Notes: generated from the sequence alone by a model not told the origin. Positions 3,243-32,000 are shown, counted from the first letter of the stretch. The stretch is DNA of 32,000 bases from Actinomycetales bacterium (GCA_016715285.1 JADKAO010000001.1:85307-117306), one strand, 5' to 3'. Numbers and translations are program-made.

Positions 3243-4292
3243 ATGGCCCGCTACGGCGCTCAGTTCGGTCCCGACGTCACCTTCCTCGGGGTGCCGCGCT
3301 GCGACCTGACCGACCCGAGCTCGTATGCCGGCGCGGACGTCGTGATTCTCGGCGCGCCCTTCGATGGCGGCACGTCGCATCGTGCCGGCACGCGTTTTGG
3401 TCCGCAGGCAATCCGGACCACGGACTATTTGGGTCATGACGGGTCGCGGCCATCGCTCGCCTTGCGGGTCGACGCGCTCCAAGACCTGCGGGTGCTCGAT
3501 GCGGGCGATATCGAAATGCCCCCAGGGCACATCGAACGCTCGCTCGGTGCCCTGGAGACTGCGGTCGAGCAGGTATGCCGTGCCGGCGCCATTCCCGTGG
3601 TCCTCGGCGGCGACCACTCGATTGCGTATGCCGATGCGCGGGGAGCGGCCAATGTCCTTGGCGCGGGCCGGGTTTCGATGCTGCACTTTGACGCTCATGC
3701 CGACACAGGCGACATCGAGTTCGGGTCGCTGTGGGGACACGGGCAACCCATGCGTCGGCTCATCGAGTCCGGGGCCTTGCGCGGGGATCGCTTCCTGCAG
3801 ATTGGGCTGCGGGGCTACTGGCCGGGACCAGAGACTCTGGCATGGATGGCCGATCAGGGCATGCGCTCCTATGAGATGACCGAGATCGGAGTGCGCGGCT
3901 TGCAGCCGTGTCTCACCGAGGCTTTCGGAATCGCGACCGACGACTGCGAGGGCGTCTTCCTCTCGGTTGACATCGACGTCTGCGACCCCGGTCATGCCCC
4001 TGGCACCGGAACGCCCGAGCCGGGCGGTTTATCCTCACGCGAACTCCTCGACTCGGTCCGGCGGATTTGCCTTGAGCTACCCGTCGTGGGCATCGATGTC
4101 GTCGAGGTCAGCCCGCCCTACGATCACGCTGATATCACCGCAGCGCTGGCAAATAGAGTGGTCCTCGAGGCCCTGTCTGCCATTGCGCGGCGGCGACGCG
4201 ACGCGGCATACGGGACCGTTTGGGACCCGAGCACCCCCTTGCTGCACGACCGGACGACGCCACACTCGCACCCACAGGAGCCGACATCATGA
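3243..4292 (+). CDS. Agmatinase / guanidinobutyrase-type ureohydrolase
   Basis: Carries the Mn-binding arginase-family motifs GGDHSIAY, DAHADTGD and SVDIDVCDPGHAPGTGTPEPGG. Confidence 0.85.
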   Translation: MARYGAQFGPDVTFLGVPRCDLTDPSSYAGADVVILGAPFDGGTSHRAGTRFGPQAIRTTDYLGHDGSRPSLALRVDALQDLRVLDAGDIEMPPGHIERSLGALETAVEQVCRAGAIPVVLGGDHSIAYADARGAANVLGAGRVSMLHFDAHADTGDIEFGSLWGHGQPMRRLIESGALRGDRFLQIGLRGYWPGPETLAWMADQGMRSYEMTEIGVRGLQPCLTEAFGIATDDCEGVFLSVDIDVCDPGHAPGTGTPEPGGLSSRELLDSVRRICLELPVVGIDVVEVSPPYDHADITAALANRVVLEALSAIARRRRDAAYGTVWDPSTPLLHDRTTPHSHPQEPTS

Positions 4293-5632
4293 CCGCCCAA
4301 CCCATCGAGCAGCACCGCGTCCTCAAGACCGCGATCCCCGGACCGCGCTCCCAGGCGCTGCAGGCGCGCAAGCTCGCGTCGGTGTCCGCGGGCGTGAGCA
4401 CGGGGCTGCCGATCTATGTCGAGCGGGGGGCGGGCGGCATCCTCGTCGACGCTGACGGCAACCAGCTCATCGACTTCGGTTCGGGCATCGCGGTGACGAG
4501 TGTCGGCAATGGTGCGCCGCGCGTGATCGAGGCGGTGCAGCGGCAGATCGCCGACTTCACCCACACGTGCTTCATGGTCAACCCATATGAGGAATACGTC
4601 GAGGTCTGCGAGAAGCTCAACGAGCTCACGCCCGGTGACCACGACAAGCGGACGGCGCTATTCAACTCCGGCGCTGAAGCAGTCGAAAACGCGGTCAAGG
4701 TCGCGCGGCATTACACCGGCAAGGACGGGATCGTCGCGTTCGACCACGCCTACCACGGGCGCACCAACCTCACCCTCGCGATGACCGCCAAGAACATGCC
4801 CTACAAGCACAAGTTCGGCCCGTTTGCGAGCGAGCTTTACCGGGTGCCGATGGCCTACCCCTACCGCTGGCCGGGCGGTCCGCAGCACTGCGCGGACGAG
4901 GCGTTCAGCTACATCATCGACCAGATCCACGCCCAGATCGGTGAGGAGAACACGGCCGCCGTCATCATCGAGCCGATCCAAGGCGAGGGCGGGTTCATCG
5001 TCCCGCCGGCGGGCTTCCTCAAGCAGCTGAGCGAGTGGTGCACGGCTAACAACATCCTGTTTATCGCTGACGAAGTGCAGTCCGGCTTCTGCCGCAGTGG
5101 TGACTGGTTCGCCAGTGACTTCGAGGGGATCGTGCCGGACCTCATCACGACTGCGAAAGGCATTGCGGGCGGTATGCCGTTGTCTGCCGTCACGGGACGC
5201 GCGGACATCATGGACACGATCCACCCCGGTGGGCTGGGCGGAACATATGGCGGCAACCCGGTCGCGTGCGCCGCGGCGCTGGCGTCGATCGAGACCATGG
5301 AGGAGGAGAACCTCATTCAGCGGGCACGTGACATCGAGGCCATTCTTAAGGGGCGACTTGAGCAGTTGGCCGCGAAATACGACGAAGTGGGTGAGATCCG
5401 AGGCCGCGGCGCGATGATCGCAATGGAACTCGTCACCGACCGCGAGACGAAGGAACCAGCGGCAGCGTTGACTGCCGCGATCAACAAGGCATGCCACGAA
5501 CGTGGCCTCGTGACCTTGACCTGCGGCACGCTGGGCAATGTATTCCGGTTCTTGCCGCCGCTGTCCATGGGTGACGACCTGCTCAATGAGGGCTTGGACA
5601 TCCTCGACGAGGCGTTTGCTGCGTCGGTCTGA
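4289..5632 (+). CDS. gabT: 4-aminobutyrate--2-oxoglutarate transaminase (class III aminotransferase)
   Basis: ATG at 4289 overlaps the upstream stop (ATGA). Motifs ADEVQSGFCRSGDWFA and TTAKGIAGGMPLSAV (PLP lysine region). The listed ORF start at 4220 lies inside the upstream gene. Confidence 0.85.
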   Translation: MTAQPIEQHRVLKTAIPGPRSQALQARKLASVSAGVSTGLPIYVERGAGGILVDADGNQLIDFGSGIAVTSVGNGAPRVIEAVQRQIADFTHTCFMVNPYEEYVEVCEKLNELTPGDHDKRTALFNSGAEAVENAVKVARHYTGKDGIVAFDHAYHGRTNLTLAMTAKNMPYKHKFGPFASELYRVPMAYPYRWPGGPQHCADEAFSYIIDQIHAQIGEENTAAVIIEPIQGEGGFIVPPAGFLKQLSEWCTANNILFIADEVQSGFCRSGDWFASDFEGIVPDLITTAKGIAGGMPLSAVTGRADIMDTIHPGGLGGTYGGNPVACAAALASIETMEEENLIQRARDIEAILKGRLEQLAAKYDEVGEIRGRGAMIAMELVTDRETKEPAAALTAAINKACHERGLVTLTCGTLGNVFRFLPPLSMGDDLLNEGLDILDEAFAASV

Positions 5633-5695
5633 GGCCGCCGCTGCGCTGTGCTGACTGACTCAATCTCTTTGTGCTGTAGCTGTTTTCGATAGGAC

Positions 5696-7162
5696 GTGGA
5701 CTTCATGATTGACCGCCAAGCTCTGCTGGACTCGGTGCCCAAGGGGCTCTATATCGACGGTCAGTGGCGTGACTCGAGTGACGGCACGACGCTCGAGGTT
5801 GACAACCCGGCCACCGGCGAGGTGTTGGCGACGATTGCCAGTGCCACGCCCGCTGATGGGATGGCGGCGCTCGATGCAGCCGTTGCCGCCCAAGCGAGTT
5901 GGGCCAAGGTGCCGCCGCGCGAGCGGGGCGAAATCTTGCGGACGGCATACGAGAAGATCGTCGAGCGCACCGAGGAGTTCGCGCTCCTCATGACCCTTGA
6001 GATGGGCAAACCGCTCGCGGAGGCGCGCGGCGAGGTTGCTTATGGCGCCGAGTTTTTCCGGTGGTTTAGCGAGGAGGCCGTCCGGATCCACGGGCGCTAC
6101 TCGGTCGCCCCCAACGGCGCGAGCCGACTGCTCACGATGAAGCAGCCGGTCGGACCGACGCTCATGATCACGCCGTGGAACTTCCCCCTCGCGATGGGCA
6201 CGCGCAAGATCGGCCCGGCGATTGCCGCTGGCTGCACGATGGTCGTCAAGCCGGCCTCGCAGACGCCGCTCACCATGCTGGCGCTCGTCCAGTTGTTGGA
6301 GGAGTGCGGCGTCCCCGCCGGCGTCCTCAACGTCATCACGACCGCGCACACGGGCGAGGTCATGGAGCCGATCATCCGCGACCCGCGTCTGCGCAAGCTG
6401 ACCTTTACGGGCTCGACGCAGGTGGGGCAGCGGCTGGTCGAGCAGTCCGCTCAGGGCCTGCTGCGGCTGTCGATGGAGTTGGGCGGCAATGCGCCGTTCA
6501 TCGTGTTTGACGACGCCGACATCGATGCTGCGGTCACGGGCGCCATGCTCGCGAAGATGCGCAATATCGGTGAGGCGTGCACGGCGGCCAACCGGTTCCT
6601 TGTGCACGAGTCGGTTGCGGCGGAGTTCTCGGAGAAGTTCGCGGCGCGCATGGCCGCGCTGACCGTCGGCGACGGCACCAAAGACGGGATCGATGTCGGA
6701 CCCCTCGTGGACCAGAAGGCTCGCGACGGTGTCGACGCGCTCGTGCAGGAGGCTGTTGCTGCCGGTGCCAAGGTCGTCGTCGGTGGCGGTCACGCCGAGG
6801 GTCCGGGGTGGTTCTATCAGCCGACGGTGCTCACCGATGTGCCCGCTGACGCCCGGATCGCTGTTGAGGAAATCTTCGGCCCGGTGGCGCCGATCTCGAC
6901 CTTCCAGACCGAGGAGGAGGCGCTGACCCGAGCCAACGACACGGCATACGGGCTCATTGCCTATGCCTTCACCCGCGATCTGGCGCGCGCGCTGCGGGTG
7001 AGCGAGGCGCTGGAGTTTGGGATGGTCGGCATCAACCAGGGCGTCGTGTCCAACCCAGCCGCACCCTTTGGTGGCGTGAAGGCGAGCGGGTTTGGCCGTG
7101 AGGGTGGCTTCGAGGGCATCGACGAGTACCTCGAGGTGAAGTACGTCGGCATCGCTCCGTGA
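5696..7162 (+). CDS. gabD: Succinate-semialdehyde dehydrogenase (aldehyde dehydrogenase family)
   Basis: 488 aa with ALDH motifs FTGSTQVG, ELGGNAPFIV and the ITPWNFP region. An alternative ATG start lies at 5705. Confidence 0.85.
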   Translation: MDFMIDRQALLDSVPKGLYIDGQWRDSSDGTTLEVDNPATGEVLATIASATPADGMAALDAAVAAQASWAKVPPRERGEILRTAYEKIVERTEEFALLMTLEMGKPLAEARGEVAYGAEFFRWFSEEAVRIHGRYSVAPNGASRLLTMKQPVGPTLMITPWNFPLAMGTRKIGPAIAAGCTMVVKPASQTPLTMLALVQLLEECGVPAGVLNVITTAHTGEVMEPIIRDPRLRKLTFTGSTQVGQRLVEQSAQGLLRLSMELGGNAPFIVFDDADIDAAVTGAMLAKMRNIGEACTAANRFLVHESVAAEFSEKFAARMAALTVGDGTKDGIDVGPLVDQKARDGVDALVQEAVAAGAKVVVGGGHAEGPGWFYQPTVLTDVPADARIAVEEIFGPVAPISTFQTEEEALTRANDTAYGLIAYAFTRDLARALRVSEALEFGMVGINQGVVSNPAAPFGGVKASGFGREGGFEGIDEYLEVKYVGIAP

Positions 7163-7692: not shown

Positions 7693-8033
7693 GGCGATTG
7701 AGTGGCGCGGTGAGCTTGGCCGCGCTCGCGACCACCGCTCGGTCGATGGGCCGCTCGGTGCGGATCGTTGATGGGGGCGCGGACAAGAAGGCTGCGCTCG
7801 CGGCTTTTGCCGAGGGGCTTGCGCTGCCCGACTGGTTTGGCAAGAACCTCGACGCCCTCACCGACGCGTTGCGCGACCTCGCCGACGAGACCGCACGCGA
7901 GATCGAGCTCGTCTGGGACGGCACCGCGCTGATCGCCCGCAACGACCCCAAGGCGTATGCCGCCTTGCTCACAGTGCTGCGCGATGTCGAGGCCGAGCGC
8001 GACGACCTGCATATCACCGTCATCGAGCGTTGA
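7689..8033 (+). CDS. Barstar-family ribonuclease inhibitor
   Basis: LALPDWFGKNLDALTDALRDL matches the barstar signature (YYGENLDALWDCL). The GTG start overlaps the RNase stop (GTGA). Confidence 0.75.
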   Translation: MRRLSGAVSLAALATTARSMGRSVRIVDGGADKKAALAAFAEGLALPDWFGKNLDALTDALRDLADETAREIELVWDGTALIARNDPKAYAALLTVLRDVEAERDDLHITVIER

Positions 8034-8063
8034 ATCAGCGTCGACGCTTCGTCCACGCGTTCC

Positions 8064-8207: not shown

Positions 8208-8209
8208 TC

Positions 8210-9157: not shown

Positions 9158-9537
9158 CCCTGGTTGTTGACGCATCGGCCTGCGCCGAAATCCTCCTGAA
9201 CACCCAGCGTGGACTCCGAGCAGCCGCGAAGCTCGGCGACCACCACCTCATCGCTCCGGATCACCTCACGGCCGAGGTTGCCTCGGTCATGCGGGGGTGG
9301 TCCCTTCGTGGACATCTCGCAGACGCCGAGCCGCTTCAGGCATTCAGTGCCTTCCACCAACTGGGGATCGAACAGGTGGCCATGAGCGATTTCCTACCTG
9401 CAGTCTGGGCGCTGAGGCACAACCTCACGGCATACGACGCCTTGTATGTCGTGCTCGCTCGCGCTGCGGGCTGTCCCCTGCTGAGTCTGGATGCCCGGCT
9501 CGCAGCCGCAGCCCCCGACTGCGTTGTCACGCCCTGA
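9154..9537 (+). CDS. vapC: PIN-domain toxin VapC
   Basis: Motifs MTLVVDASACAEILL and TAYDALYVVLARAAGCPLLSLDARL carry the PIN acidic residues. ATGA overlap with vapB. Confidence 0.8.
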   Translation: MTLVVDASACAEILLNTQRGLRAAAKLGDHHLIAPDHLTAEVASVMRGWSLRGHLADAEPLQAFSAFHQLGIEQVAMSDFLPAVWALRHNLTAYDALYVVLARAAGCPLLSLDARLAAAAPDCVVTP

Positions 9538-9574: not shown

Positions 9575-10819
9575 ATGGGGGAGAATGCCGGGGTGAGTGA
9601 GCCCCGCAACGTCACCCTGCTGGGGTCGACTGGATCCATCGGCACCCAGGCCATCGAGGTCATTGCCGCCAACCCGGGTCGGTTCCGCGTCGACGGGCTC
9701 ACCGCGGGCGGCGGCAACCTCGCCCTGCTCGCCCAGCAAGCCGTCGCGCTCGACGCCGACGTCATCGGCGTCGCCCACGCCGACCCCGCCGAAGTCCGCG
9801 CAGCGATCGCCGACGCGGCCCGAGAAGCCGGGCGGACGGCATACACGCCCGAGGTTGTGACCGGACCCCACGCCAACGATGAGGTCGCCGCGCGCCCCGT
9901 GGACGTCGTCCTTAACGGCATCACCGGCTCGATCGGGCTCACCCCCACCCTCGCCGCGCTCACCGCAGGCAACACGCTCGCCCTGGCCAACAAGGAATCC
10001 CTCATCGTCGGCGGCCAACTCGTCACCGCCGCAGCGCAGCGACCCGATCAGATCATCCCCGTCGACTCCGAGCACAGCGCGATCGCCCAGTGCCTGCGCG
10101 GCGGTCGCACCGACGAGGTACGTCGCCTCGTCATCACCGCAAGTGGGGGACCGTTCCGCGGGCGCACGCGCGAGCAACTTCACAACGTCACGCCCGCCGA
10201 GGCGCTCGCGCACCCCAACTTCGCGATGGGGCGCGTGGTGACGACCAACAGCGCGACCCTCGTCAACAAGGGGCTTGAGGTCATCGAGGCGCACTTGCTC
10301 TTTGGCATCCCGTTCGAGCGGATCACGACGGTCGTCCACCCGCAGCAGCAAATCCACTCGATGGTCGAGTTCCACGACGGGTCGACCATCGCCCAGGCCG
10401 GACCGCCGCGCATGCTGGTCCCGATCGCCCTCGGTCTCTCCTGGCCGGATCGCCTCGCCGACGTCGACGAACCCTGCGACTGGACCCGCGCGCAGTCATG
10501 GGACTTCTTCCCGCTCGACGGCGACGCCTTCCCCTCCGTGCCCCTCGCGTATGCCGTGGGCGCTGCGGGCGGCACGATGCCCGCGGTCTACAACGCGGCC
10601 AACGAGGTCTGCGTGGACGCCTTCCACGACGGGCGGATCCGCTTCACCGACATTGTGGACACGATCGCGCGCGTGGTCGATCACCACCGCGACGGCAACC
10701 CCGAGCAGGTATGCCGGGCCGGCACCGGAATCGAAACGCCGGCCCTGGACGTTGAGCGGGTGCTGCGCGCAGACTCGTGGGCGCGGCACGAAGCCCGGCG
10801 CGTGCTGGGTCTGGGTTAA
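9575..10819 (+). CDS. dxr: 1-deoxy-D-xylulose 5-phosphate reductoisomerase
   Basis: Motifs LLGSTGSIGTQA, LANKESLI, PVDSEHSAI and NKGLEVIEAH. ATG at 9575 (alternative GTG at 9593). The listed ORF start at 9491 overlaps vapC. Confidence 0.9.
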   Translation: MGENAGVSEPRNVTLLGSTGSIGTQAIEVIAANPGRFRVDGLTAGGGNLALLAQQAVALDADVIGVAHADPAEVRAAIADAAREAGRTAYTPEVVTGPHANDEVAARPVDVVLNGITGSIGLTPTLAALTAGNTLALANKESLIVGGQLVTAAAQRPDQIIPVDSEHSAIAQCLRGGRTDEVRRLVITASGGPFRGRTREQLHNVTPAEALAHPNFAMGRVVTTNSATLVNKGLEVIEAHLLFGIPFERITTVVHPQQQIHSMVEFHDGSTIAQAGPPRMLVPIALGLSWPDRLADVDEPCDWTRAQSWDFFPLDGDAFPSVPLAYAVGAAGGTMPAVYNAANEVCVDAFHDGRIRFTDIVDTIARVVDHHRDGNPEQVCRAGTGIETPALDVERVLRADSWARHEARRVLGLG

Positions 10820-10829: not shown

Positions 10830-12176
10830 GTGACCTCGCTGGTGTATCTGCTCGGTGTCCTCGCCGTCGTGGCGCTGATCGGGCTCTCGATCGCGCTGCA
10901 CGAGTTGGGGCACCTCGTGCCGGCCAAACGCTTTGGTGTGCGGTGCACGAAGTACATGATCGGGTTTGGTCCGACGGTGTGGTCGCGGGTGCGCGGAGAC
11001 ACGGAGTACGGGATCAAGGCGATCCCGCTCGGCGGCTACGTCAAAATGATCGGCATGATCCCGCCGCGGCCGGGGGATGCGCCAGGGCAATTGCGGTCAA
11101 CCACCACTGGCCGGATGTCGATTGTTGAGCAGGCTCGCGCCGACTCCATGGACGAGATCGAGCCGGGCGACGAGGACCGGGTGTTTTACAAGCTCCCGGT
11201 GCACAAGAAGATCATCGTCATGCTCGGCGGGCCGTTCATGAACCTCGCCCTCGCTGTCGTGCTGTTGACAGTGCTCGTGAGCGGCATCGGGCTGCCGACG
11301 ACGGTGCCCAAGCTCGGCAGTGTCGCTCAGTGCGTGCCATCCGCCGCACCGACTGTTGCCAAGCCGCAGCCGGAGTGCGCCGTCGGTGATGCCGCGCCGC
11401 CGTCGGTTGCTGCTGGTTTGCGGGCGGGGGACCGGATCGTCGAGGTCAACGGCACCCCCGTGACCTTGTGGTCTGAAGTGACGACGAAGATCCGTGCTGC
11501 TGCCGGGCAGACGATGACGTTGACGGTCGAGCGCACCGGCGAGCGGCTCACGGTCTCGGCGCCGATAGTGGGAGTGGAGCGGGCGGCATACACTCCCGAA
11601 GGCAAAGTGCGCCTCAACCCCGACGGGACCGTGCTGACCGAGCGCGTCGGGTTCTTGGGCGCGACCGCGACTGCGGACTATGTTGCGCTGCCGGTGACCG
11701 AGGTGCCAATGGTGTTTGGTCGCCTGGTGTCGACTGTTGCCTCAGCATTGGGGACCTTCCCCGAAAAGCTCGTGGGAGTCGCTAAAACCCTTGCTGGACA
11801 GGCTGATCGGGACCCTGAGGGCCCTGTCTCTGTCGTGGGGATCGGTCGCGTCGGCGGTGAAATTGCGACGGGCGCGGTGGCGTCGGACGGGCCCAAGGGA
11901 ATGATCTACCAGTTCATTTGGCTCGTGCTCGGGCTCAATCTGATGCTCTTCTTCTTCAACCTGCTCCCGGTCCTCCCGCTCGACGGCGGCCAAGTCGTCG
12001 GCGCGGTCTGGGAGGGCATCAAACGCACGTGGGCGCGCGTCACCGGGCGCCCTGACCCGGGTTACGTCGACGTCGCCAAGGGCCTTCCCATCGCGTATGC
12101 CGTGTCGATCCTGCTCATCGGCATGACCCTCATGCTCGCGGTGGCCGACCTGGTCAAACCCATCAGCCTGGGTTAG
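10830..12176 (+). CDS. rseP: Site-2 (M50) zinc metalloprotease RseP/Rip1
   Basis: HELGH zinc motif, a PDZ-like middle region and NLLPVLPLDGG. GTG at 10830 is preceded by AAGGAG. The first 185 codons of listed ORF 10275..12176 are an off-frame shadow of dxr. Confidence 0.85.
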   Translation: MTSLVYLLGVLAVVALIGLSIALHELGHLVPAKRFGVRCTKYMIGFGPTVWSRVRGDTEYGIKAIPLGGYVKMIGMIPPRPGDAPGQLRSTTTGRMSIVEQARADSMDEIEPGDEDRVFYKLPVHKKIIVMLGGPFMNLALAVVLLTVLVSGIGLPTTVPKLGSVAQCVPSAAPTVAKPQPECAVGDAAPPSVAAGLRAGDRIVEVNGTPVTLWSEVTTKIRAAAGQTMTLTVERTGERLTVSAPIVGVERAAYTPEGKVRLNPDGTVLTERVGFLGATATADYVALPVTEVPMVFGRLVSTVASALGTFPEKLVGVAKTLAGQADRDPEGPVSVVGIGRVGGEIATGAVASDGPKGMIYQFIWLVLGLNLMLFFFNLLPVLPLDGGQVVGAVWEGIKRTWARVTGRPDPGYVDVAKGLPIAYAVSILLIGMTLMLAVADLVKPISLG

Positions 12177-12531: not shown

Positions 12532-13391
12532 GAGCCGGCGGCGAAGTGGGCGAGGTCGGACTCGGTGCCGAAGAACACGTCGCGGTCAAGATTGGCCTCG
12601 ACGCCACGTTGCCAGATCGTTGGCCGTGACCACCCTGCTGGCCACGGCCCGACTGGACCATCGTGGTCAAAGAGCCAGAGCGGGTTAGTCGCGCCAACCG
12701 AACGATCGTCGGCGAGGCACTGCGCCCACAGGTCAGCTCGGACATAGATCAGTGGGACCCGCGTGGTGAGGCGTCTGTATTCGGCTGAGAAGTCCTTGAC
12801 CCAGGCGACCAACTGCGCAGGCGTCATCCCGTAGCAGGGGTCGCCACTGGTGTTCCGCTCGAGGTCGAGCGCCCCCGGGAGGGTGTGTCCGTCGGTGCTC
12901 CAGCCGCCGCTCACCGTGACGAAGTGTCGGGCCTGCACGGTTCCGGACGACGACGATGGTCGCGCATAGTGATAGGCCCCGACCTTCATGCCGACGGCTC
13001 GCGCTGCGTCGCGCTGGGCGGCATACAGGGGGCTGCGCCAGGTCGCGCCCTCGGTGGCTTTGACAATCGCGAATCGATGGCCGCTGGCCCACAATCCCGC
13101 CCAGTCGACCGTGCGTTGATACGGCGAGACATCAACACCTGCAACGGTCGGGCCGGTCCGCCAGTCAGGTGCCGGATCGGAGGAGGTCGTCGCCGAGGAA
13201 GTCGGCGCAGAGGGAGTCGATGAGGGGGCGTTCGCGGGCAGGGTTGCCGGGACCGTCGAGGGAACGCTTGGCGACTGGGACGCGACAGTAGGTGCGGACG
13301 GCGATCCCACACACCCAGAAAGGGCACTACCCAGGACGAGGACACCGAGCCAGCGGGACGGCATACCTCGCCTTTGTGCAGGCGCCCTCAC
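12528..13391 (-). CDS. GH25 muramidase (lysozyme), lipoprotein
   Basis: Lipobox LSGC after a hydrophobic signal, then a Ser/Pro/Thr linker. The GH25 signature is GVDVSPYQRTVDWAGLWASGHRFAIVKATEG. GTG at 13391 overlaps the upstream stop (GTGA). An alternative ATG lies at 13364. Confidence 0.8.
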   Translation of the reverse strand: MRAPAQRRGMPSRWLGVLVLGSALSGCVGSPSAPTVASQSPSVPSTVPATLPANAPSSTPSAPTSSATTSSDPAPDWRTGPTVAGVDVSPYQRTVDWAGLWASGHRFAIVKATEGATWRSPLYAAQRDAARAVGMKVGAYHYARPSSSSGTVQARHFVTVSGGWSTDGHTLPGALDLERNTSGDPCYGMTPAQLVAWVKDFSAEYRRLTTRVPLIYVRADLWAQCLADDRSVGATNPLWLFDHDGPVGPWPAGWSRPTIWQRGVEANLDRDVFFGTESDLAHFAAGS

Positions 13392-17754: not shown

Positions 17755-18228
17755 TTAGAGCCAGCGGCGGACGCGCGCGGCATACTCCGTGTATGCCGCG
17801 CCGAAGCGGTTGGTGAGGTAGCGCTCTTCCCGCGCGATGACGAAGTGGTTCATGACCCAGATGATTAGCGGCAGGAGCGCGATCGCGAGCCAGGCACCGG
17901 TGACGACCGCAACGCCGAGGTAGATCAGCGCGTCGCCGAGGTAGATCGGGTTGCGGGTGCGCTGATAGATTCCTGCGCTGACGAGAGTGGCGACTTCGTG
18001 CCACGGGATCACCGTCGTCCGGTGGTCGATCAGGGCCTTGCCGCCAGCGACAAATACGCCGACGCCCAGGGCCACGAGCAGAGCCCCCACGACAAGGCGG
18101 ACCGAGCCTCCGCTCGTTGCGAGCGGTCCCGGCCATGACCCCCTCCATTGGGCCAGGATTGCGGCCACGAGGGGTGCGAGGAACACCAGCGGCGGGAGTA
18201 GCCGCACGTTGGCACCTCGGCGCGCCAT
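17755..18228 (-). CDS. Isoprenylcysteine carboxyl methyltransferase (ICMT)/phospholipid methyltransferase family membrane protein
   Basis: Motifs RTRNPIYLGDALIYLG and EERYLTNRFGAAYTEYAARV. ATG at 18228 lies 1 nt after the EamA stop. Confidence 0.75.
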   Translation of the reverse strand: MARRGANVRLLPPLVFLAPLVAAILAQWRGSWPGPLATSGGSVRLVVGALLVALGVGVFVAGGKALIDHRTTVIPWHEVATLVSAGIYQRTRNPIYLGDALIYLGVAVVTGAWLAIALLPLIIWVMNHFVIAREERYLTNRFGAAYTEYAARVRRWL

Positions 18229-19252: not shown

Positions 19253-19253
19253 C

Positions 19254-20969: not shown

Positions 20970-21737
20970 ATGGATGGACGCCCGCTCGCAGTGGCAGTTA
21001 TCGGCGCCAACGGCAGGATGGGATCGACCGTATGCCGGGCGGTCGAGGCCGCGCCCGACCTGCGGCTGGTCGGCCGGTACGACCAAGGCGACGACCTCGG
21101 TGACCTTGGCGGCGCTGACGTGGTCGTCGAGTTCTCGGTGCCGGATGCGTCGCTGGGCAACGTGCTGGCCTGCGTCGAACGCGGCGTCCACGTGGTCGTC
21201 GGCACGACGGGCTGGGGTGACGTCAAGCTGGCGCGCCTCGCTGCGGCTGTCACGGCTGCACCGCCATCACGGGGTGGGACGGGGGTGGGCGTTCTCATCG
21301 CCCCGAACTTCGCCCTCGGTGCCATCCTCATGATGAACTTCGCGGCCCAGGCGGCTCGGTTCTTCGAGTCGGTCGAGGTCGTCGAGTTACATCACCCCGC
21401 CAAGGTCGATGCCCCATCGGGCACGGCAGCGCGGACTGCGGACCTCATCGGCGCCGCGCGCGACGCAGCTGGGCTTGGTCCTGTCCCAGACGCGACCACG
21501 CAGGATCCGGACGGCGCGCGCGGTGCGCGGGTGCACGGCATACCCGTCCATGCCTTGCGGGTGCGGGGGCTGGTTGCGCACCAAGAAGTGATCTTTGGCA
21601 ACGTGGGGGAGACGCTCACGATCCGGCACGACTCGCTGGATCGCGAGTCCTTTATGGCCGGAGTGTTGACCGGCGTGCGGCGCGTGGCCGACCACCCGGG
21701 CGTGACCGTGGGCCTCGAACACTACTTGGGCCTCTAA
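20970..21737 (+). CDS. dapB: 4-hydroxy-tetrahydrodipicolinate reductase
   Basis: Motifs VAVIGANGRMG, VVGTTGW and ELHHPAKVDAPSGTA. Confidence 0.9.
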   Translation: MDGRPLAVAVIGANGRMGSTVCRAVEAAPDLRLVGRYDQGDDLGDLGGADVVVEFSVPDASLGNVLACVERGVHVVVGTTGWGDVKLARLAAAVTAAPPSRGGTGVGVLIAPNFALGAILMMNFAAQAARFFESVEVVELHHPAKVDAPSGTAARTADLIGAARDAAGLGPVPDATTQDPDGARGARVHGIPVHALRVRGLVAHQEVIFGNVGETLTIRHDSLDRESFMAGVLTGVRRVADHPGVTVGLEHYLGL

Positions 21738-22061: not shown

Positions 22062-22741
22062 GGGGTCGCCCCCTCATGCGCAGCCCGGCGGGGCCACAGC
22101 CCAACCCCAACAGCGGCAAGCACCGCAACCAGCACGGGTATGCCGGGTGGCGCGTGCGGCACGGTGAGCAGCGTGAGTGCCACGGCCGCAGTCGCCGTGG
22201 CTGCGGCATCCCGGGAGCGCAGCCGCGGCCACAGGAGGGCGATGAAAGCTGCCGCAGCCGCCCCGTCCAGACCCCATCGACGTGGGTCGCCCATCGCGTT
22301 GCCGAGGATCGCGCCGAGCAGCGTGAACGCATTCCAGAAGATGTAGACGGCGATCCCCGTCGTCCAAAACCCTTGTCTGCGAAGCTCATCGGTCGGTTGC
22401 ACAATGCCGACGACGGTCGACTCATCGATCGTCAACTGTGCTGCGGCCAGGCGACGCGGCCCGCGCACATCGAGGAACCGCGCCACTTGCAGCCCATAGA
22501 GCCCATTGCGGATGCCGAGCAAGCTCGCCGCTGCGATCGCCGCGAGCCCGGCCCCGCCCGACCCAATGACCCCGACGAAAGCGAACTGCGATCCTCCGGT
22601 GAACATGAGGGTGGACAGAGCCACCGTCTGCCATACGTCCAGCCCCGAGGCGACGCTCAGCGCTCCAAACGAAATGCCATAGGCACCTGTCGCGATCCCC
22701 ACTGACCAGGATTGGCGCGACACCTGGCGAGCTGTCGTCAT
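22058..22741 (-). CDS. azlC: AzlC-family branched-chain amino acid exporter subunit
   Basis: The reading MTTARQVSRQSWSVGIATGAYGISFGALSVASGL..MFTGGSQFAFVG fits AzlC. ATG at 22741 is internal to listed ORF 22058..22948. Confidence 0.8.
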   Translation of the reverse strand: MTTARQVSRQSWSVGIATGAYGISFGALSVASGLDVWQTVALSTLMFTGGSQFAFVGVIGSGGAGLAAIAAASLLGIRNGLYGLQVARFLDVRGPRRLAAAQLTIDESTVVGIVQPTDELRRQGFWTTGIAVYIFWNAFTLLGAILGNAMGDPRRWGLDGAAAAAFIALLWPRLRSRDAAATATAAVALTLLTVPHAPPGIPVLVAVLAAVGVGLWPRRAAHEGATP

Positions 22742-22821: not shown

Positions 22822-23253
22822 ATGACTCCATCACATGTGGCTGTGCGCCGAGGTCGACGCGCGCTGGGGTGGTGGCTCGCGGGGACTCTGATCGTAGGGC
22901 TCGCCGGCTGCTCTGCGTCCGCCGGTTCATCCCCCGAGGAAGCGGCACAGACCTTCTTCCGCTCGCTCGGCGCCAAAGACACCAAAGCCGCCTGCGGGGT
23001 CGTCGCGTATGCCGGCAAGCCCCTTGCCGGGGATGACCTCACCTTGTGTGCCTCCGGGTTTGACTCGGTTGTTGCAGTGGCGGGTGCCGACGATCTCACC
23101 GCGTTGCGTGGCTCTGCGGTGTCAGGGGCACAGGTTTACGGGGACAAGGCGACAGTTCGCGCCGACCAGCTCACTGGCGTGCCCACGGCATACCGGCAGG
23201 ATCTCGGGCTGGTGCGGGTCGACGGCCGCTGGTACCTCGACATCCCGCAGTAG
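22822..23253 (+). CDS. Putative lipoprotein of unknown function
   Basis: Signal peptide with lipobox LAGC (RRGRRALGWWLAGTLIVGLAGCSAS), followed by a small mature domain. ATG at 22822 is internal to listed ORF 22744..23253. Confidence 0.55.
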   Translation: MTPSHVAVRRGRRALGWWLAGTLIVGLAGCSASAGSSPEEAAQTFFRSLGAKDTKAACGVVAYAGKPLAGDDLTLCASGFDSVVAVAGADDLTALRGSAVSGAQVYGDKATVRADQLTGVPTAYRQDLGLVRVDGRWYLDIPQ

Positions 23254-23365: not shown

Positions 23366-24505
23366 TTGCCAGAAACTCAACCGTCCCAAGACATGGAGGT
23401 TGTCGGCGGTCGAGACCATACTGACCGTATGTACGGAAATGACTTCGGTGACTTCGATGACCCGGGCGCTGGCCCCCTCAATGCGGCAGACACCGGCGAG
23501 GTGGAGGCCGCTGCGGCCCACGCCGACCGTCGGGCCGAACTCGATCTGAGCGACTTCGACGCGATCATCGCGGCCGACCAGCGCATCGAGCCGCGTGACG
23601 CGATGCCGGAGGAATACCGGCAGACGCTGATCCGACAGATCGCCCAACACGCGCACTCCGAGATCATCGGGATGCAGCCTGAGGGCAACTGGCTGACGCG
23701 CGCTCCGTCGTTGCGGCGCAAGGCGATCCTCATCGCCAAGGTCCAGGATGAGGCGGGCCACGGGCTCTACCTCTACTCGGCCGCCGAGACCCTCGGCATC
23801 ACCCGTGAAGAGCTGCTCGACCGGCTCCACAACGGCAAGCAGAAGTACTCCTCGATCTTCAACTACCCGACGCTCACGTGGGCCGACATTGGCGCGATCG
23901 GCTGGCTGGTCGACGGCGCGGCGATCATGAACCAAGTGCCGCTCTGCCGCTGCTCCTACGGCCCCTACGCCCGCGCGATGATCCGCACCTGCAAGGAGGA
24001 GTCCTTCCACCAGCGGCAGGGCTTCGAAGCGCTGTGGGACCTCATGCGCGGCACCGAGGCCCAGCAGGCCATGGCCCAGGATGCGATCAACCGGTGGTGG
24101 TGGCCCGCCCTGGCGATGTTCGGCCCGCGCGACACTGGCGAACACGCCGTCAAGGGTGGACACACCGCGCAGTCCATGGCGTGGGGCATCAAGCGGTTCT
24201 CCAACGACGAGCTGCGTCAGCGCTTTGTCGACATGACCGTGCCGCAGGCCGAGCGCCTCGGGCTCAAACTCCCAGACCCCGAGCTCAAGTGGAACGAGGA
24301 GCGCGGTCACTACGACTTTGGCGAGATCGACTGGGACGAGTTCTGGCGCGTCCTCAAGGGCGACGGCGCCTGCAACGCCCAGCGCATGGAGCGCAGGGTC
24401 ACCTCACACAAGCAAGGCGCCTGGGTGCGCGACGCCGCGGCAGCGTATGCCGCAAAGTCGGAAGGCCGCAAGGCCGCCGCGAGCAATGAAGGAAGCGCAG
24501 CATGA
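23366..24505 (+). CDS. paaA: 1,2-phenylacetyl-CoA epoxidase subunit A
   Basis: Motifs [44 protein letters not shown] and [11 protein letters not shown] are di-iron ligand motifs. The start is uncertain (TTG 23366, ATG 23393, ATG 23429). Confidence 0.9.
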
Positions 24506-24789: not shown

Positions 24790-25595
24790 GCAGCGACACC
24801 GAGACAACTGCGGCAACCGCGACCGGAGGCCCGGCAACAGCGGGAGCAGCGCACACGGCATACCTGCTTGGTCTTGCCGATGACGCACTCATCTACTCTC
24901 ATCGGCTCTCCGAATGGCTGACCTGGGCGCCCATGCTCGAAGAAGACATGGCGATGGCCAATATCTCGCTCGACCTCATCGGTCAGGCGCGGTCCATCTA
25001 CACCTACGTCGGCTCGATCGATGGCACCAACCGCACCGAGGATGACCTCGCGTACTGGCGCGATGAGCGCGAGTTCCGCAATGTCCACCTCGTCGAGCAG
25101 CGCCGCGGCGACTTCGCGCAAGAGATGGCGAGGATGCTGTGGTTCGCGGCATACCAGAAGGGCCTGTATGCCGCGCTGTCGGGTTCGGCAGACGCGCAAC
25201 TGCGGGCGATCGCGGTCAAGGCGCTCAAAGAAGTTCGTTACCACTACGACCACGCCGCTCAATGGGCGGTCCGGCTGGGTGACGGCACCGGCGAGTCGCA
25301 CGACAAGATGCAAGCAGCGTTGACCTGGGTTGCGCCCTACGTTGCGGAGCTCTTCAGCGATGACGCCAATTCGGTTGCGGCAGCTGACGCGGGAGTCGGC
25401 GTGCTGCCGTCAACGCTTCAGGCTGCGGCGGCGAGCGCCGTTGCGGACGTGCTGCGCGAGGCGACGCTCGAGGCTCCCGCGGATTCACGTTGGCACGCCC
25501 GGGGAGGACGCGAGGGGGTGCACTCGGAGCCGATGGGTTACCTCCTGGCCGAGATGCAGCACCTGCCGCGGTCCCACCCGGGTGCGGCATGGTGA
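24786..25595 (+). CDS. paaC: 1,2-phenylacetyl-CoA epoxidase subunit C
   Basis: Position in the cluster, and LGLADDALIYSHRLSEWLTWAPMLEEDMAMANISLDLIGQAR is typical PaaC. Confidence 0.85.
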   Translation: MSSDTETTAATATGGPATAGAAHTAYLLGLADDALIYSHRLSEWLTWAPMLEEDMAMANISLDLIGQARSIYTYVGSIDGTNRTEDDLAYWRDEREFRNVHLVEQRRGDFAQEMARMLWFAAYQKGLYAALSGSADAQLRAIAVKALKEVRYHYDHAAQWAVRLGDGTGESHDKMQAALTWVAPYVAELFSDDANSVAAADAGVGVLPSTLQAAAASAVADVLREATLEAPADSRWHARGGREGVHSEPMGYLLAEMQHLPRSHPGAAW

Positions 25596-26161
25596 TGGTA
25601 CTCGCTGACGTGACTGCAGAGGTGGCGGTTGACGTGCCTGTTGCGCCTGATGCGCACGAGGTGCTCGCAGCGGTTCGGGCGATCCCGGACCCGGAGATCC
25701 CGGTTGTCACAATCGAGAGCCTCGGCATCCTGCGCGACCTGCGCCTTGATGAAGCGGCGGGTGAGCTCCACGCGGTCATCACCCCGACCTATTCCGGGTG
25801 CCCCGCCATGCAGGCGATCGAGGATGCCATCGCGCGCGTATGCCGTGCGCACGGCCTGCGCGGTGTCGTTACGACCCAGCTGTCTCCGGCTTGGACGACT
25901 GACTGGATTGGGGAGGAAGCACGAGAAGCGTTGCGGCGCTTTGGGATTGCTCCCCCCAGCCCGTCGGCGGCCGGTCGTCCCGTGTCGGTGTCGATCATGG
26001 CCCGACCTGGAGGCGACGATGCGGATCAGGCCGTGGCCTGCCCCCGCTGCGGTAGCCACCGCACCACTGTGCTGTCCAACTTCGGTTCGACGGCGTGCAA
26101 AGCCCTTCGCCGCTGCGATGCGTGCGGCGACCCCTTCGACGAGTTCAAGGCGCTCTCATGA
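25589..26161 (+). CDS. paaD: Phenylacetate-CoA oxygenase subunit PaaD/PaaJ
   Basis: IPDPEIPVVTIESLGILRDL is the MIP18-like domain, followed by a C-terminal CPRCGS...CKALRRCDACGDPFDEFK Cys cluster. Candidate starts at 25589, 25592 and 25595 overlap the paaC stop. Confidence 0.8.
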   Translation: MVMVLADVTAEVAVDVPVAPDAHEVLAAVRAIPDPEIPVVTIESLGILRDLRLDEAAGELHAVITPTYSGCPAMQAIEDAIARVCRAHGLRGVVTTQLSPAWTTDWIGEEAREALRRFGIAPPSPSAAGRPVSVSIMARPGGDDADQAVACPRCGSHRTTVLSNFGSTACKALRRCDACGDPFDEFKALS

Positions 26162-27273: not shown

Positions 27274-27800
27274 CCCGATGCCTGGCCGCCCGACTGATGT
27301 GCACGAGCAGGGAGGCGGCGACGGTAGGTCACCCAGGCGCAGCTGTCGCCCGCCATCCGATCGACCTCGACCCATTGGTCGGGGTCGATCGGCGGGAAGG
27401 TCACTGAGCCGGCGGCGTCTTGGTCGACCTCGGTGATCACCAGGTGCGTTGCCTGCGGCATCGCGAGGCGATAGATCTGGCCGCCACCGGCGATCCAGAT
27501 CGGCGCACCGAACTCCTCGGCTGCGTGGAGCGCGGCGTCGAGCGACGGGGCGGTGGTCACTCCAGGCGCGTGCCATTCCGGGTCACGGGTCAACACGATC
27601 GTGTGCCGCCCTGGCAACGCCCGGCCGATGGAGTCGAACGTGCCCCGTCCCATGATGAGAGTCCCACCGAGGGTGGTGCGCTTGAAGAAGGCGAGGTCCT
27701 CGGGCAGGTGCCACGGCATACCGCTGCCGTCTCCGATGACCCCGTTGCGCGCCACCGCCGCGATCATGCCCACAGCGGGTGCGGGGTCAGTCGCGCTCAT
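27261..27800 (-). CDS. folA: Dihydrofolate reductase
   Basis: Motifs [32 protein letters not shown] and [12 protein letters not shown] at 27800 overlaps the thyA stop (ATGA). The 3' end overlaps the convergent paaE by 13 nt. Confidence 0.85.
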
Positions 27801-28633
27801 ACGGCGATCGGAGCGGGGATGCCGGGGTGCGGGTCGTAGCCGTCTAGGGCGATGTCGGCCAGGTCGAACTCGTCGATGTCCAGCCCCGGGGTGAGCCGCA
27901 GCGTGGGCAGCGGGCGGCAATCTCGGCTGAGCTGAAGCCGCGCCTGGTCGAGGTGGTTGACGTAGAGGTGGGCATCGCCGAGCGTGTGCACGAAATGCCC
28001 CGGCCGCAGCCCCACGACTTGAGCGACCATATGCGTCAGCAGCGCGTAGGACGCGATATTGAAGGGGACTCCCAAGAAGACGTCCGCCGAGCGCTGATAG
28101 AGCTGACAGTCGAGGTATGCCGTCTCGTCACCGCCGCCGCTCGCCTCGCCGGCGTGGGTGGCCGGGCGCACGTAGAACTGGAAAAGGGCGTGGCAGGGGG
28201 GTAGGGCCATGGCGTCCACGTCGGCGACATTCCACGCAGAGACGATGTGCCGGCGGGAGTCGGGGTTGGCGCGGAGGCCGTTGATCACTGTGGCGATCTG
28301 GTCGATCTGGCGCCCATCCGAGGCCGGCCACGACCGCCATTGGTGACCGTAAACAGGGCCGAGGTCGCCGTTCTCATCAGCCCACTCGTCCCAAATGGAG
28401 ATCTTGCGCTCGTGCAACCACGCGATGTTGGTGTCGCCGCGGAGGAACCACAGCAACTCGCCAAAGATCGAGCGCAAGTGCAGGCGCTTGGTGGTCATCG
28501 CCGGGAAACCCTCAGCGAGATCGAATCTCATCTGATGCCCGAACACACTGAGCGTCCCCGTGCCGGTGCGGTCGTCCTTGCGTACGCCATCGGTGAGGAT
28601 GCGATCAAGCAGGTTGTGGTACTGATGCACCAT
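27797..28633 (-). CDS. thyA: Thymidylate synthase (ThyA)
   Basis: Motifs [44 protein letters not shown] and DAHLYVNH. Confidence 0.95.
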
Positions 28634-28879: not shown

Positions 28880-29767
28880 ATGACGATGCCCATTTTCGGC
28901 CGGGTTCTAACAGCCATGGTGACCCCGATGACCCCCACCGGCGAGGTGGATGAGGACGGTGTGGTCGCTGTTGCCGAGCATCTGTTGGCCCACGGCCATG
29001 ATGGGTTGGTCGTCAACGGCACGACTGGCGAGTCGGCCACGCTGACCAGCGATGAGAGCATTCGGGTCATCGAGCTTGTTGCTCAGACGGTGGGCGATCG
29101 CGCGGTCGTCCTGGCTGGCGTGGGCTCCAATGACACGGCGCACAGCATCGCTATGTCACGCCGGGCAGCAGCCGTCGGTGCGACCGGTCTCCTCGTGGTG
29201 ACCCCGTACTACAACAAGCCCACGCAGCCAGGGTTGGTCGCTCACTTCTCTGCCGTCGCGGACGCCACCGACCTGCCCGTGCTGCTCTATGACATCCCGG
29301 GGCGCGCCGGCATCCCCATCCAGACCGAGACCCTCATCCGCCTGGCCGAGCACCCGAGGATCGTGGCCGTCAAAGACGCTAAATGCGACCTCTGGGCCGC
29401 GAGCAAGGTCATGGCCGCAACCGAGCTGCAGTACTACTGCGGCGCCGACGAAACCAACCTCGCGCTGCTCGCCCAGGGCGCAGTTGGCATCGTCTCCGTG
29501 GTCGGTCACGTCGCCGGACGCGAGTATGCCGCGATGATCCGCGCCGTAGAGGCGGGGGACCTCGCGACCGCCCGCACGATCCACACTCGCCTCATCCCCG
29601 TGGTGGACGCGATCATGTCAACCAGCCAGGGCGCCATCATGGCCAAGGCCGCGCTCGTCGAACTCGGCGTCATCACCAGCGCCGCCGTCCGGCTCCCGCT
29701 CGTGGAGTCGCCCATCGACCACCTCGAGATCCTGCGGGCTGGTCTGTCGAAATCAGGAATCCGTTGA
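28880..29767 (+). CDS. dapA: 4-hydroxy-tetrahydrodipicolinate synthase
   Basis: MTMPIFGRVLTAMVTPMTPTGEVD...GLVVNGTTGES...YNKP. ATG at 28880 is internal to listed ORF 28832..29767. Confidence 0.9.
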   Translation: MTMPIFGRVLTAMVTPMTPTGEVDEDGVVAVAEHLLAHGHDGLVVNGTTGESATLTSDESIRVIELVAQTVGDRAVVLAGVGSNDTAHSIAMSRRAAAVGATGLLVVTPYYNKPTQPGLVAHFSAVADATDLPVLLYDIPGRAGIPIQTETLIRLAEHPRIVAVKDAKCDLWAASKVMAATELQYYCGADETNLALLAQGAVGIVSVVGHVAGREYAAMIRAVEAGDLATARTIHTRLIPVVDAIMSTSQGAIMAKAALVELGVITSAAVRLPLVESPIDHLEILRAGLSKSGIR

Positions 29768-31449: not shown

Positions 31450-31529
31450 CCCTTCACAAACCCGACTCCAGCCCGACGCGCCTCGACCCCCGCCCCGCGG
31501 ACCCGGCCTGCGACGAGCCTCGCGAGCGC

Positions 31530-32000
31530 CTACCAGGGGCGCTGCGGTGCGGTCTCCTCGATGCCCTCGAGGTCTCGGGTTACCCAGCCGTCGGCGGACG
31601 CGGCATACCGGAGGGCGGGTCCGTGGGCAGCGAATCGCCGCACCGCGGCGACCAGGCGCTCGACATGCTCAAGTCGCGTTGCCAGCCCCAGGCTCGCGCG
31701 CACAGCAGTGACGGGTATGCCGGGTGCATCGCACCCGCTTGTCGCGCTGGAATTGCCCGGCACGGCATACCCCTCGCGGTTGCCTACTGGTGAGCTGGCG
31801 CCGCCAGCGGGGTGGTCCGCCAGGAGCGCGTCCACCAGCTGGTGCGCGCAGAACTTGCCGTCCCGGACCCCGATCCCATATTCGACCGAGAGCGCTGTCG
31901 CCACCAAGGCGGAGTCCAGGCCATCGATCGTGAAGGCGACCACGGCCACCCGGTCGGATCCCTCTCCGAACATGGAGTGCAGGCGTACCCCCGGAATCGC
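31530..32000 (-). CDS. Aminotransferase class V-fold PLP enzyme (cysteine desulfurase-like), C-terminal part, runs off the 3' edge
   Basis: The frame is open to the window end (..AIPGVRLHSMFGEGSDRVAVVAFTIDGLDSALVATALSVEYGIGVRDGKFCAHQL...RASLGLATRLEHVERLV). Confidence 0.7.
   Translation of the reverse strand, partial: AIPGVRLHSMFGEGSDRVAVVAFTIDGLDSALVATALSVEYGIGVRDGKFCAHQLVDALLADHPAGGASSPVGNREGYAVPGNSSATSGCDAPGIPVTAVRASLGLATRLEHVERLVAAVRRFAAHGPALRYAASADGWVTRDLEGIEETAPQRPW

Follow-up and report, generated by a model that had tools for sequence, protein, structure and literature searches.

An asymmetric octamer under DNA-level constraint in Dermatophilaceae: a possible mark of self DNA

Introduction

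To our knowledge, hyper-abundant, non-polar genomic words are well known only from Pasteurellaceae, Neisseriaceae and cyanobacteria, and in these groups such words opened the biology of DNA uptake and self-recognition. The core of the uptake signal sequence (USS) of Haemophilus influenzae, a member of the Pasteurellaceae, is AAGTGCGGT. The DNA uptake sequences (DUS) of Neisseriaceae occur as dialects (PMC3630211), and the octamer HIP1 of cyanobacteria has recently been tied to transformation efficiency (10.1101/2024.09.10.611283, 10.64898/2026.06.24.733823). Here we analyze an octamer, GTATGCCG, that is repeated throughout a 32,000-bp stretch of an Actinomycetales genome (GCA_016715285.1, JADKAO010000001.1:85307-117306), referred to below as the window. 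An earlier inspection of this stretch (the original prediction) had noticed that the octamer is written in five of the six reading frames with A/T-ending codons, and had proposed that selection or biased repair acts on the DNA word, with protein sequence drifting to accommodate it, as for the USS.

Our literature search found neither an account of this word nor one of any uptake-like sequence in Actinomycetota, the search with the bare word being swamped by Illumina adapter sequences. The genome paper on Ca. Phosphoribacter, a relative of the window's source, makes no mention of competence, pili or repeats. New features here are the phylum, a word that is asymmetric, near-saturation of the sites that permit it, and the possible dialects.

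Results

Abundance and exactness of the octamer

The octamer occurs as 51 exact copies of GTATGCCG or its reverse complement CGGCATAC in the window, 28 on the plus strand and 23 on the minus strand. Dinucleotide-preserving shuffles of the window gave 0.66 ± 0.76 copies with a maximum of 3. The observed density is about one copy per 630 bp, an enrichment of about 75-fold, and once the word was masked no second octamer was notably enriched in the window. The copies extend over 232-31770, a wider span than the 3573-31722 of the original prediction.

Relatives were collected by scanning representative genomes with the Dxr protein; 80 loci of about 21 kb around dxr were retrieved, and clades were taken from a single-gene (Dxr) neighbour-joining tree. 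When 17 octamer-rich loci were pooled, 380 copies were counted in 320 kb, whereas a third-order Markov model predicted 19. Each of the 24 one-mismatch variants was present in only 0-64 copies in the same 320 kb, which is about background, and the synonymous precursor GTACGCCG was depleted 5-fold compared with octamer-poor relatives. Alignment of the copies showed no information upstream of the word and, downstream, only a pyrimidine at position 9 (79% of the 380 pooled copies) and a G at position 10 (57%). The word is asymmetric and is thus not a palindrome, and it lacks the features of dispersed repeats of the REP (repetitive extragenic palindrome) or MITE (miniature inverted-repeat transposable element) kind, having no information content outside positions 1-10 and lying in coding sequence in 50 of 51 cases.

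The pooled copies were divided between the strands as 210 plus and 170 minus, and none of the 17 loci departed from 50:50 (binomial p of at least 0.17). On the coding strand the GTATGCCG orientation is modestly in excess, because the main frame of the reverse orientation bears the cost of ATA. Spacing was near-random and slightly even, with a coefficient of variation of 0.86 compared with 0.97 ± 0.05 in simulations.

Codon choice at the octamer

The 50 coding copies use five frames. The frame xxG-TAT-GCC-Gxx accounts for 23 of them and xCG-GCA-TAC for 14, nine of which encode Thr-Ala-Tyr and five Ala-Ala-Tyr. Five copies lie in xxC-GGC-ATA-Cxx, all as Gly-Ile-Pro, four in GTA-TGC-CGx, all as Val-Cys-Arg-Ala, and four in GGT-ATG-CCG. 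The sixth frame, CGG-CAT-ACx, is empty because Arg-His-Thr is rare, with one context in the window. The earlier tally of 24, 14, 5, 4, 4 and 0 agrees with this apart from two entries: the copy at 8136 is the intergenic exception, and that at 20450 encodes Gly-Met-Pro.

We then compared these copies with permissive peptide contexts, that is, peptides in which the word can be written. In the window 50 of 66 such contexts are realised, whereas 2.4 would be expected from codon usage. When synonymous codons were shuffled within genes, 4.2 ± 1.9 copies remained and the highest count in 1000 shuffles was 11, compared with the 50 observed. By frame, the word is realised in 4 of 4 VCR contexts, 23 of 24 xYA contexts followed by G, 14 of 15 [STPA]AY contexts and 5 of 15 contexts of the ATA frame. 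Saturation is therefore nearly complete where the price is a mildly disfavoured codon, and partial where the very rare ATA, or AGT/CGT, is required.

The choice of codon depends on whether the full word can form. Tyrosine is encoded by TAT in 21 of 22 Tyr-Ala pairs followed by a G-starting codon; in the other Tyr-Ala pairs TAT stands at its background rate, 5 of 14 (Fisher p = 2e-4). Of the 14 Ala-Tyr pairs preceded by xCG, 13 are written GCA-TAC, whereas GCA occurs in none of the 18 other Ala-Tyr pairs (p = 4e-8). ATA is found in 5 of 15 octamer contexts and 1 of 431 elsewhere, and GTA in 4 of 4 and 14 of 867, respectively; five of the six ATA codons in the window, and four of its 18 GTA codons, are thus inside the octamer. 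Use of these codons inside and outside the word therefore differs sharply, and the argument that one dipeptide preference could not account for five frames is borne out, since codon choice flips only where the full 8-mer can form. The TAC-GCC codons cited as the available alternative at 774, 3138 and 23966 are real, and each is followed by a base other than G, so that the octamer could not have formed there. Two of the supporting statements were too strong. The fraction of G or C at third codon positions (GC3) in the window's genes is 0.82, which is short of overwhelming, and the description of the codons as rare holds for ATA and GTA, whereas TAT (38% of Tyr), GCA (11% of Ala) and GGT are minority codons of the ordinary kind. 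On its central point, a DNA-level constraint with protein accommodation, the original prediction is supported by codon context, by the shuffles and by the orthologues described below; it is correct and, if anything, understated. We regard the DNA-level nature of the constraint as close to certain.

RNase J (29818-31449) lies within the longest word-free stretch of the window (2.07 kb) and has no permissive peptide context, showing that strongly constrained proteins simply escape the word.

Retention of copies and change of proteins

When the window was aligned with a related locus, L001, 20 of 26 octamers were found at the same position, compared with 5.8 expected for a random 8-mer; identity at third codon positions was 0.59. 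Retention was similar for L003, L006 and L007. In these alignments the octamers fall on ungapped orthologous codons without indels, indicating propagation by substitution. As a side observation, L003, a long-read metagenome-assembled genome (MAG), contains twenty C8/G8 runs in 21 kb, probably homopolymer-related assembly noise.

Fifteen sites of the window have orthologues in octamer-free genera, and at only one of them, the RYAA of saccharopine dehydrogenase, is the peptide conserved in every relative. A synonymous change alone (TAC to TAT) separates the genomes there: octamer-free genomes carry GTACGCCG or CTACGCCG and octamer-rich ones GTATGCCG. At most of the other sites the window and its octamer-rich relatives share amino acids unlike the majority state of octamer-free relatives. 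In aldehyde dehydrogenase, TAY stands against the TEY of 19 of 20 octamer-free relatives, and TAY/AAY against RAF/SAF; Dxr has AYAV for ARQV, RseP has AYAV for AYTV/AYSV, and an ABC permease has TAY for VPY. Permissive contexts in the same orthologous genes are 2-5 times more frequent in rich clades (1.6-2.1/kb) than in poor clades (0.4-0.8/kb). The predicted drift of proteins toward the word is thus borne out both by the 15 aligned sites and by the frequency of permissive contexts.

Taken together, these data show a persistent force on the exact 8-bp duplex word that is independent of reading frame, transcription direction and strand. This force overrides synonymous codon preference almost completely and fixes replacements at tolerant protein positions, and copies have been retained long after adjacent synonymous sites were saturated.

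Distribution among relatives, phage and possible dialects

By Dxr, the window groups in the Dermatophilaceae/Intrasporangiaceae (Actinomycetota) and is chromosomal. Its closest Dxr match is an activated-sludge MAG with 92% identity, and Ca. Phosphoribacter hodrii has 73%. The octamer reaches 0.8-1.6/kb in the window's (Phosphoribacter-like) clade, Nostocoides (Tetrasphaera) and Knoellia, and 0.3-0.7/kb in Ornithinimicrobium and Pedococcus; it is essentially absent from the loci of Phycicoccus, Oryzobacter, Janibacter, Dermacoccus, Promicromonospora and Kribbella. In orthologous coding sequence, permissive contexts are realised in 106 of 169 cases in the window's clade, 58 of 88 in Nostocoides/Pedococcus, 25 of 51 in Knoellia, 6 of 14 in Ornithinimicrobium and 5 of 29 in Ornithinibacter, and in none of 38 in Phycicoccus-like, 6 in Promicromonospora-like and 8 in Janibacter-like (Janibacter/Dermacoccus) loci. 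The octamer-free related genomes are similar to the octamer-rich ones in GC content and codon usage. Isolates that carry the octamer include N. jenkinsii Ben 74, Knoellia flava TL1, K. locipacati and Pedococcus cremeus. A locus titled Rothia sp. ARF10 (L027; 0.94/kb) clusters with Knoellia in the Dxr tree, and its genus label looks wrong.

The 49 kb of TJE1, a lytic phage of the octamer-rich Tetrasphaera jenkinsii, contain 2 copies (0.74 expected), with 2 of 44 permissive contexts realised; the enriching force is not acting on this phage. A scan of viral contigs for CGGCATAC-N(1-30)-GTATGCCG found no octamer-rich virus among at least 120 loci. In almost all of these the seeded pair was the only one, and the density of extra copies was about 0.06/kb, near chance. 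Within the rich loci, a search for octamer-free islands or foreign genes yielded only two genes that had three or more permissive contexts with none realised, neither of them an obvious mobile element.

In Ornithinibacter/Fodinibacter the top enriched octamer is GGATGCCG, and the 9-mer CGGATGCCG, found 68 times in 147 kb, is the best word; in 169 kb of the Phycicoccus clade this 9-mer occurs 11 times. GGATGCCG is realised in 32 of 100 permissive contexts there and in 5-10% elsewhere, a 3-6 fold enrichment. These words appear in several frames, again with A/T-ending codons (GAT and GCA), and reach 0.5-1.2/kb in nine loci (L008, L016, L017, L020, L021, L023, L024, L030 and L051). The clade also retains a residue of GTATGCCG, in the 5 of 29 contexts given above. 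As a lead, (C)GGATGCCG is a possible one-base dialect of the window's octamer. In Allobranchiibius sp. CTAmp26 (L058), GTACGCCG occurs 20 times in 21 kb (4 expected; 0.95/kb), and 5 of 9 permissive contexts carry it; this may represent a third variant, or no more than the way in which Tyr-Ala is encoded there.

Some other repeats were seen in the related loci. The palindrome ATCCGGAT occurs 6-8 times per locus of 12-21 kb, where about 0.2 would be expected, in octamer-free Phycicoccus/Janibacter-like genomes (L028, L036, L043, L062, L069 and L071). L079 has a 132-bp unit in 13 tandem copies (13555-15139), probably from a repeat-domain protein, and this repeat accounts for its second enriched octamer, TCCCAGAC. 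An inverted octamer pair is conserved at L026 12774-12820, L027 12662-12708 and L079 17641-17687, where it flanks a putative promoter or 5' region and the next start codon (ATGACTGTTGGTCTCGGTATGCCG, MTVGLGMP); it is among the few non-coding placements of the octamer.

Positions of the copies and gene content of the window

All copies are listed in Table 1. Genes were called with a self-trained codon model, Pfam and reading of open reading frames (ORFs). The window is a compact segment of bacterial chromosome, 94% coding, with genes for polyamine-type ABC permeases, saccharopine dehydrogenase, an arginase-family enzyme, an aminotransferase, aldehyde dehydrogenase, barnase/barstar, two VapC-type toxin-antitoxin pairs, Dxr, RseP, a GH25 muramidase, a GNAT acetyltransferase, an ABC-2 exporter, DapB, AzlCD, PaaABCDE, dihydrofolate reductase (DHFR), ThyA, DapA and RNase J. 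No DNA methyltransferase was found among these genes by Pfam and ORF reading.

Three toxin/inhibitor pairs adjoin at 7159-9537: barnase-barstar (7159-8033, plus strand), a VapC with a Phd/YefM-type antitoxin (8210-8877, minus) and a ribbon-helix-helix (RHH) antitoxin with a PIN toxin (8933-9537, plus). The PIN toxin gene has a homologue in none of the 80 related loci, yet one octamer lies inside it. The PNPOx-like gene (19254-19930, minus) has its N-terminus (19808-19930) in another frame than the Pfam-matching body (19254-19700), and the coiled-coil protein (20004-20944, minus) is split into 20426-20944 and 20004-20384. These apparent frameshifts are either assembly indels or pseudogenes.

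Table 1. Copies of the octamer in the window, with the strand of the word, the host gene and its reading
Position	Strand	Host gene or place	Codons	Peptide	Remark
232..239	-	ABC permease 1 (+ gene)	ACG-GCA-TAC	Thr-Ala-Tyr	
1606..1613	+	ABC permease 2	CTG-TAT-GCC-GAT	LYAD	
2092..2099	-	saccharopine dehydrogenase	GCG-GCA-TAC	AAY	
2402..2409	+	saccharopine dehydrogenase	CGG-TAT-GCC-GCC	RYAA	peptide conserved in all relatives; TAC in octamer-free genomes
3323..3330	+	arginase-family gene	TCG-TAT-GCC-GGC	SYAG	
3573..3580	+	arginase-family gene	GTA-TGC-CGT	VCR	
3626..3633	+	arginase-family gene	GCG-TAT-GCC-GAT	AYAD	
4204..4211	-	arginase-family gene	GCG-GCA-TAC	AAY	
5172..5179	+	class-III aminotransferase	GGT-ATG-CCG	GMP	
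5943..5950	-	aldehyde dehydrogenase	ACG-GCA-TAC	TAY	RAF/SAF in octamer-free relatives
6942..6949	-	aldehyde dehydrogenase		TAY	TEY in 19/20 octamer-free relatives
7955..7962	+	barstar	GCG-TAT-GCC-GCC	AYAA	
8136..8143	-	between barstar stop (8033) and VapC stop (8210)			sole copy outside a credible gene
9428..9435	-	PIN-domain toxin		TAY	
9837..9844	-	Dxr		TAY	octamer at same position in 16/16 octamer-rich loci
10549..10556	+	Dxr		AYAV	ARQV in most relatives
10709..10716	+	Dxr	GTA-TGC-CGG	VCR	
11584..11591	-	RseP		AAY	
12095..12102	+	RseP		AYAV	octamer in 13/14 rich loci; AYTV/AYSV in poor loci
13019..13026	-	GH25 muramidase (- gene)		LYAA	
13359..13366	-	GH25 muramidase		GMP	
14441..14448	+	GNAT acetyltransferase		GYAV	
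14663..14670	+	GNAT acetyltransferase		GYAV	
15055..15062	-	GNAT acetyltransferase		TAY	
15523..15530	+	ABC ATPase		LYAV	
16069..16076	-	ABC ATPase	GAC-GGC-ATA-CCC	DGIP	
16311..16318	+	ABC-2 permease a		VYAA	
16845..16852	+	ABC-2 permease a		GYAV	
17642..17649	+	ABC-2 permease b		VYAV	
17778..17785	-	PEMT-family methyltransferase (- gene)		EYAA	inverted pair with 17791
17791..17798	+	PEMT-family gene		AAY	inverted pair with 17778
19298..19305	+	PNPOx-like gene (-)		HGIP	
19466..19473	-	PNPOx-like gene		EYAA	
19873..19880	-	frame-shifted N-terminal segment of PNPOx-like gene		LYAV	
20450..20457	-	coiled-coil protein segment (-)	GGT-ATG-CCG	GMP	
21030..21037	+	DapB		VCR	
21536..21543	-	DapB		HGIP	
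22138..22145	+	AzlC (- gene)		PGIP	
23007..23014	+	putative lipoprotein (22822-23253 +)		AYAG	
23186..23193	-	putative lipoprotein		TAY	
24445..24452	+	PaaA		AYAA	
24856..24863	-	PaaC		TAY	
25147..25154	-	PaaC		AAY	inverted pair with 25166
25166..25173	+	PaaC		LYAA	inverted pair with 25147
25838..25845	+	PaaD		VCR	
27714..27721	-	DHFR (- gene)		GMP	
28115..28122	+	ThyA (- gene)		TAY	
29524..29531	+	DapA		EYAA	
31601..31608	-	unassigned ORF 31530-31973 (-)		RYAA	
31715..31722	+	ORF 31530-31973 (-)		PGIP	
31763..31770	-	ORF 31530-31973 (-)		GYAV	

Discussion

We propose that a sequence-specific protein would read the word as duplex DNA with all-or-none specificity at eight of eight positions. 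The word would spread by molecular drive, as do the USS of Pasteurellaceae and the DUS of Neisseriaceae and as HIP1 of cyanobacteria probably does: chromosomal fragments with the word would be preferentially taken up, recombined or retained, word-completing alleles would be over-transmitted within the lineage, and the word would thus become a mark of self DNA. The specificity of the reader may shift between clades, which could have given the possible (C)GGATGCCG variant in Ornithinibacter/Fodinibacter; by analogy with DUS dialects, a protein reader that co-evolves with its word would be expected to leave sister clades one base apart. The signature found here, about one copy per kb, non-polar, in several coding frames, accommodated by the proteome and specific to clades, is common to USS, DUS and HIP1, and for this reason we favour an uptake or recombination mark. 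From sequence and analogy, a self-DNA mark spread by biased uptake or recombination is our tentative choice, and we hold it at rather less than even confidence. Natural transformation is described in the same order, for Micrococcus luteus (PMC12849477, PMC6370729).

Several points weigh against a self-DNA mark. Direct selection for a function of the word in the chromosome would agree equally well with all of the evidence from sequence. We know of no Actinomycetota or other Gram-positive bacterium with uptake specificity. The window has no intergenic inverted pairs of the word that could form terminators, its two close pairs (17778/17791 and 25147/25166) both being coding, and the intergenic sample, 1.8 kb with one copy, is small. 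As for the dialect, its signal falls far short of that of the main word and is based on about 150 kb and a single-gene neighbour-joining tree.

Some other explanations need to be weighed. The word might be maintained as HIP1 may be, by an orphan methyltransferase, possibly together with a very-short-patch-like repair nuclease, that recognises the octamer; biased correction or selection for methylated sites would then enrich it, with gene transfer affected, if at all, as a secondary consequence. HIP1, also an octamer, resembles the present word in density, spreads by substitution and is recognised by methylases (10.64898/2026.06.24.733823). The present octamer likewise spread by substitution, without indels in orthologue alignments, phage TJE1 is unenriched, and the depletion of GTACGCCG would fit deamination of 5-methylcytosine feeding the word. 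However, the word is non-palindromic, and methylases seldom have asymmetric 8-bp sites in which every base is specified; nor do we know of a methylase for this word. To reach the word, many sites had to undergo two or three substitutions at different positions (for example TEY to TAY), for which no single mismatch-specific repair suffices, and A/T-containing near-matches are enriched, not depleted, relative to octamer-poor clades. We consider this explanation doubtful, yet deserving of attention. Direct selection for a function in cis, in which an abundant protein that is nucleoid-associated or acts in condensation, segregation or repair loading would bind the word and need sites every 0.5-1 kb on either strand, would agree with the slightly even spacing, the strong positional conservation, the absence of strand polarity and the lack of enrichment in phage TJE1. 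It seems rather unlikely to us, given that close relatives with the same chromosome biology have zero copies and that the word may differ by one base between clades; moreover, we know of no bacterial nucleoid protein whose site is specified at all of 8 bp and recurs about 5000 times in a genome.

An 8-nt word of sharp specificity that is abundant in the host and not enriched in phage TJE1 also recalls Chi, and the octamer could in principle act in both orientations as a self-protection signal for a helicase-nuclease (RecBCD/AdnAB), limiting degradation of the cell's own DNA at double-strand breaks. This is improbable: known Chi sites are co-oriented with replication, whereas 17 of 17 loci show no strand polarity, and the density, the roughly 75-fold enrichment and the rewriting of proteins are far beyond any known Chi, that of E. 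coli occurring about once per 4.6 kb. A polar reading of the Chi or KOPS (FtsK-orienting polar sequence) kind is ruled out by the absence of strand polarity. A preference at the level of protein or codon pairs (Tyr-Ala, Ala-Tyr and the like), or a generic context-dependent mutation bias, without any constraint on the whole word, could appeal to the 37 of 50 coding copies that lie in two frames. It is contradicted by the dependence of the TAT-GCC and GCA-TAC preference on the flanking G or CG that completes the word, and also by the use of five frames, the background level of one-mismatch words, the 4.2 copies left after synonymous shuffling instead of 50, and the relatives of similar GC and codon usage without the word; we give it virtually no credence. 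Finally, the octamer is a substring of the Illumina P7 adapter (CAAGCAGAAGACGGCATACGAGAT includes it), which raises the question of adapter remnants or assembly error. The copies are flanked by non-adapter sequence, lie in frame within conserved genes and recur at orthologous positions across independent genomes, isolates among them; the isolate carriers and the flanks exclude such an artefact, and its likelihood is negligible.

Returning to the self-DNA mark, we suggest with some further reserve that the octamer could be the first uptake-sequence-like watermark of self DNA in Actinomycetota: asymmetric, numbering about 5000 copies in a genome provided that the local density extends genome-wide, with a predicted protein reader that belongs to a pathway of DNA uptake, recombination or exchange, clade dialects (GTATGCCG, (C)GGATGCCG, possibly GTACGCCG) and a proteome-wide rewriting of codons and amino acids in the main wastewater phosphorus removers. 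It would be a fourth case of such words, high-GC Gram-positive, asymmetric and denser than the classical ones, and would imply that Actinomycetota have a protein that reads DNA sequence-specifically. Through it, natural transformation or some other route of DNA exchange could come to light in uncultured phosphorus-accumulating organisms of wastewater, the main phosphorus-removing bacteria concerned being Tetrasphaera, Nostocoides and Ca. Phosphoribacter. In practice, the word might be placed in constructs for better genetic tractability, and its density used to flag foreign DNA and to bin Dermatophilaceae contigs. It also offers a clean gauge of DNA-level drive on proteins, with about three in four permissive sites filled and permissive contexts 2-5 fold commoner.

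Compared with the USS, the octamer is likewise a short exact word at about one per kb, on both strands, mostly genic and in several frames with preferred tripeptides; tolerant protein positions are altered, spacing is fairly even, and mismatched copies are far rarer than perfect ones. It differs in belonging to another phylum, that of a high-GC Gram-positive actinobacterium, in having only a Y and a G after it instead of an AT-rich helical-phase flanking motif, in the lack of terminator-forming inverted pairs, and in its higher density (1.2-1.6/kb). With the DUS (PMC3630211) it shares a clade-structured presence, a possible one-base dialect in a sister clade that keeps a residue of the other word, and reduction or absence in foreign DNA, here phage; the DUS, however, is 10-12 bp long, contains an invariant CTG core, has the minor pilin ComP as its reader and often forms terminator inverted pairs. 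The ATGCCG common to GTATGCCG and AT-DUS (ATGCCGTCTGAA) is probably a coincidence. Chi and the words read by FtsK/TraB-type translocases (KOPS and the TraB recognition sequence, TRS, of Streptomyces) also have eight fully specified bases read by a single protein machine, but Chi and KOPS are strongly strand-polar and far less dense, and TRS repeats are clustered in plasmid clt loci, whereas the present word is non-polar and dispersed. Like HIP1 (GCGATCGC), it is a hyper-abundant octamer, mostly coding, spread by substitution and not by insertion, patchy within its lineage, slightly regular in spacing and of unsettled mechanism; HIP1 is palindromic with known methylase sites inside, and the word described here is asymmetric.

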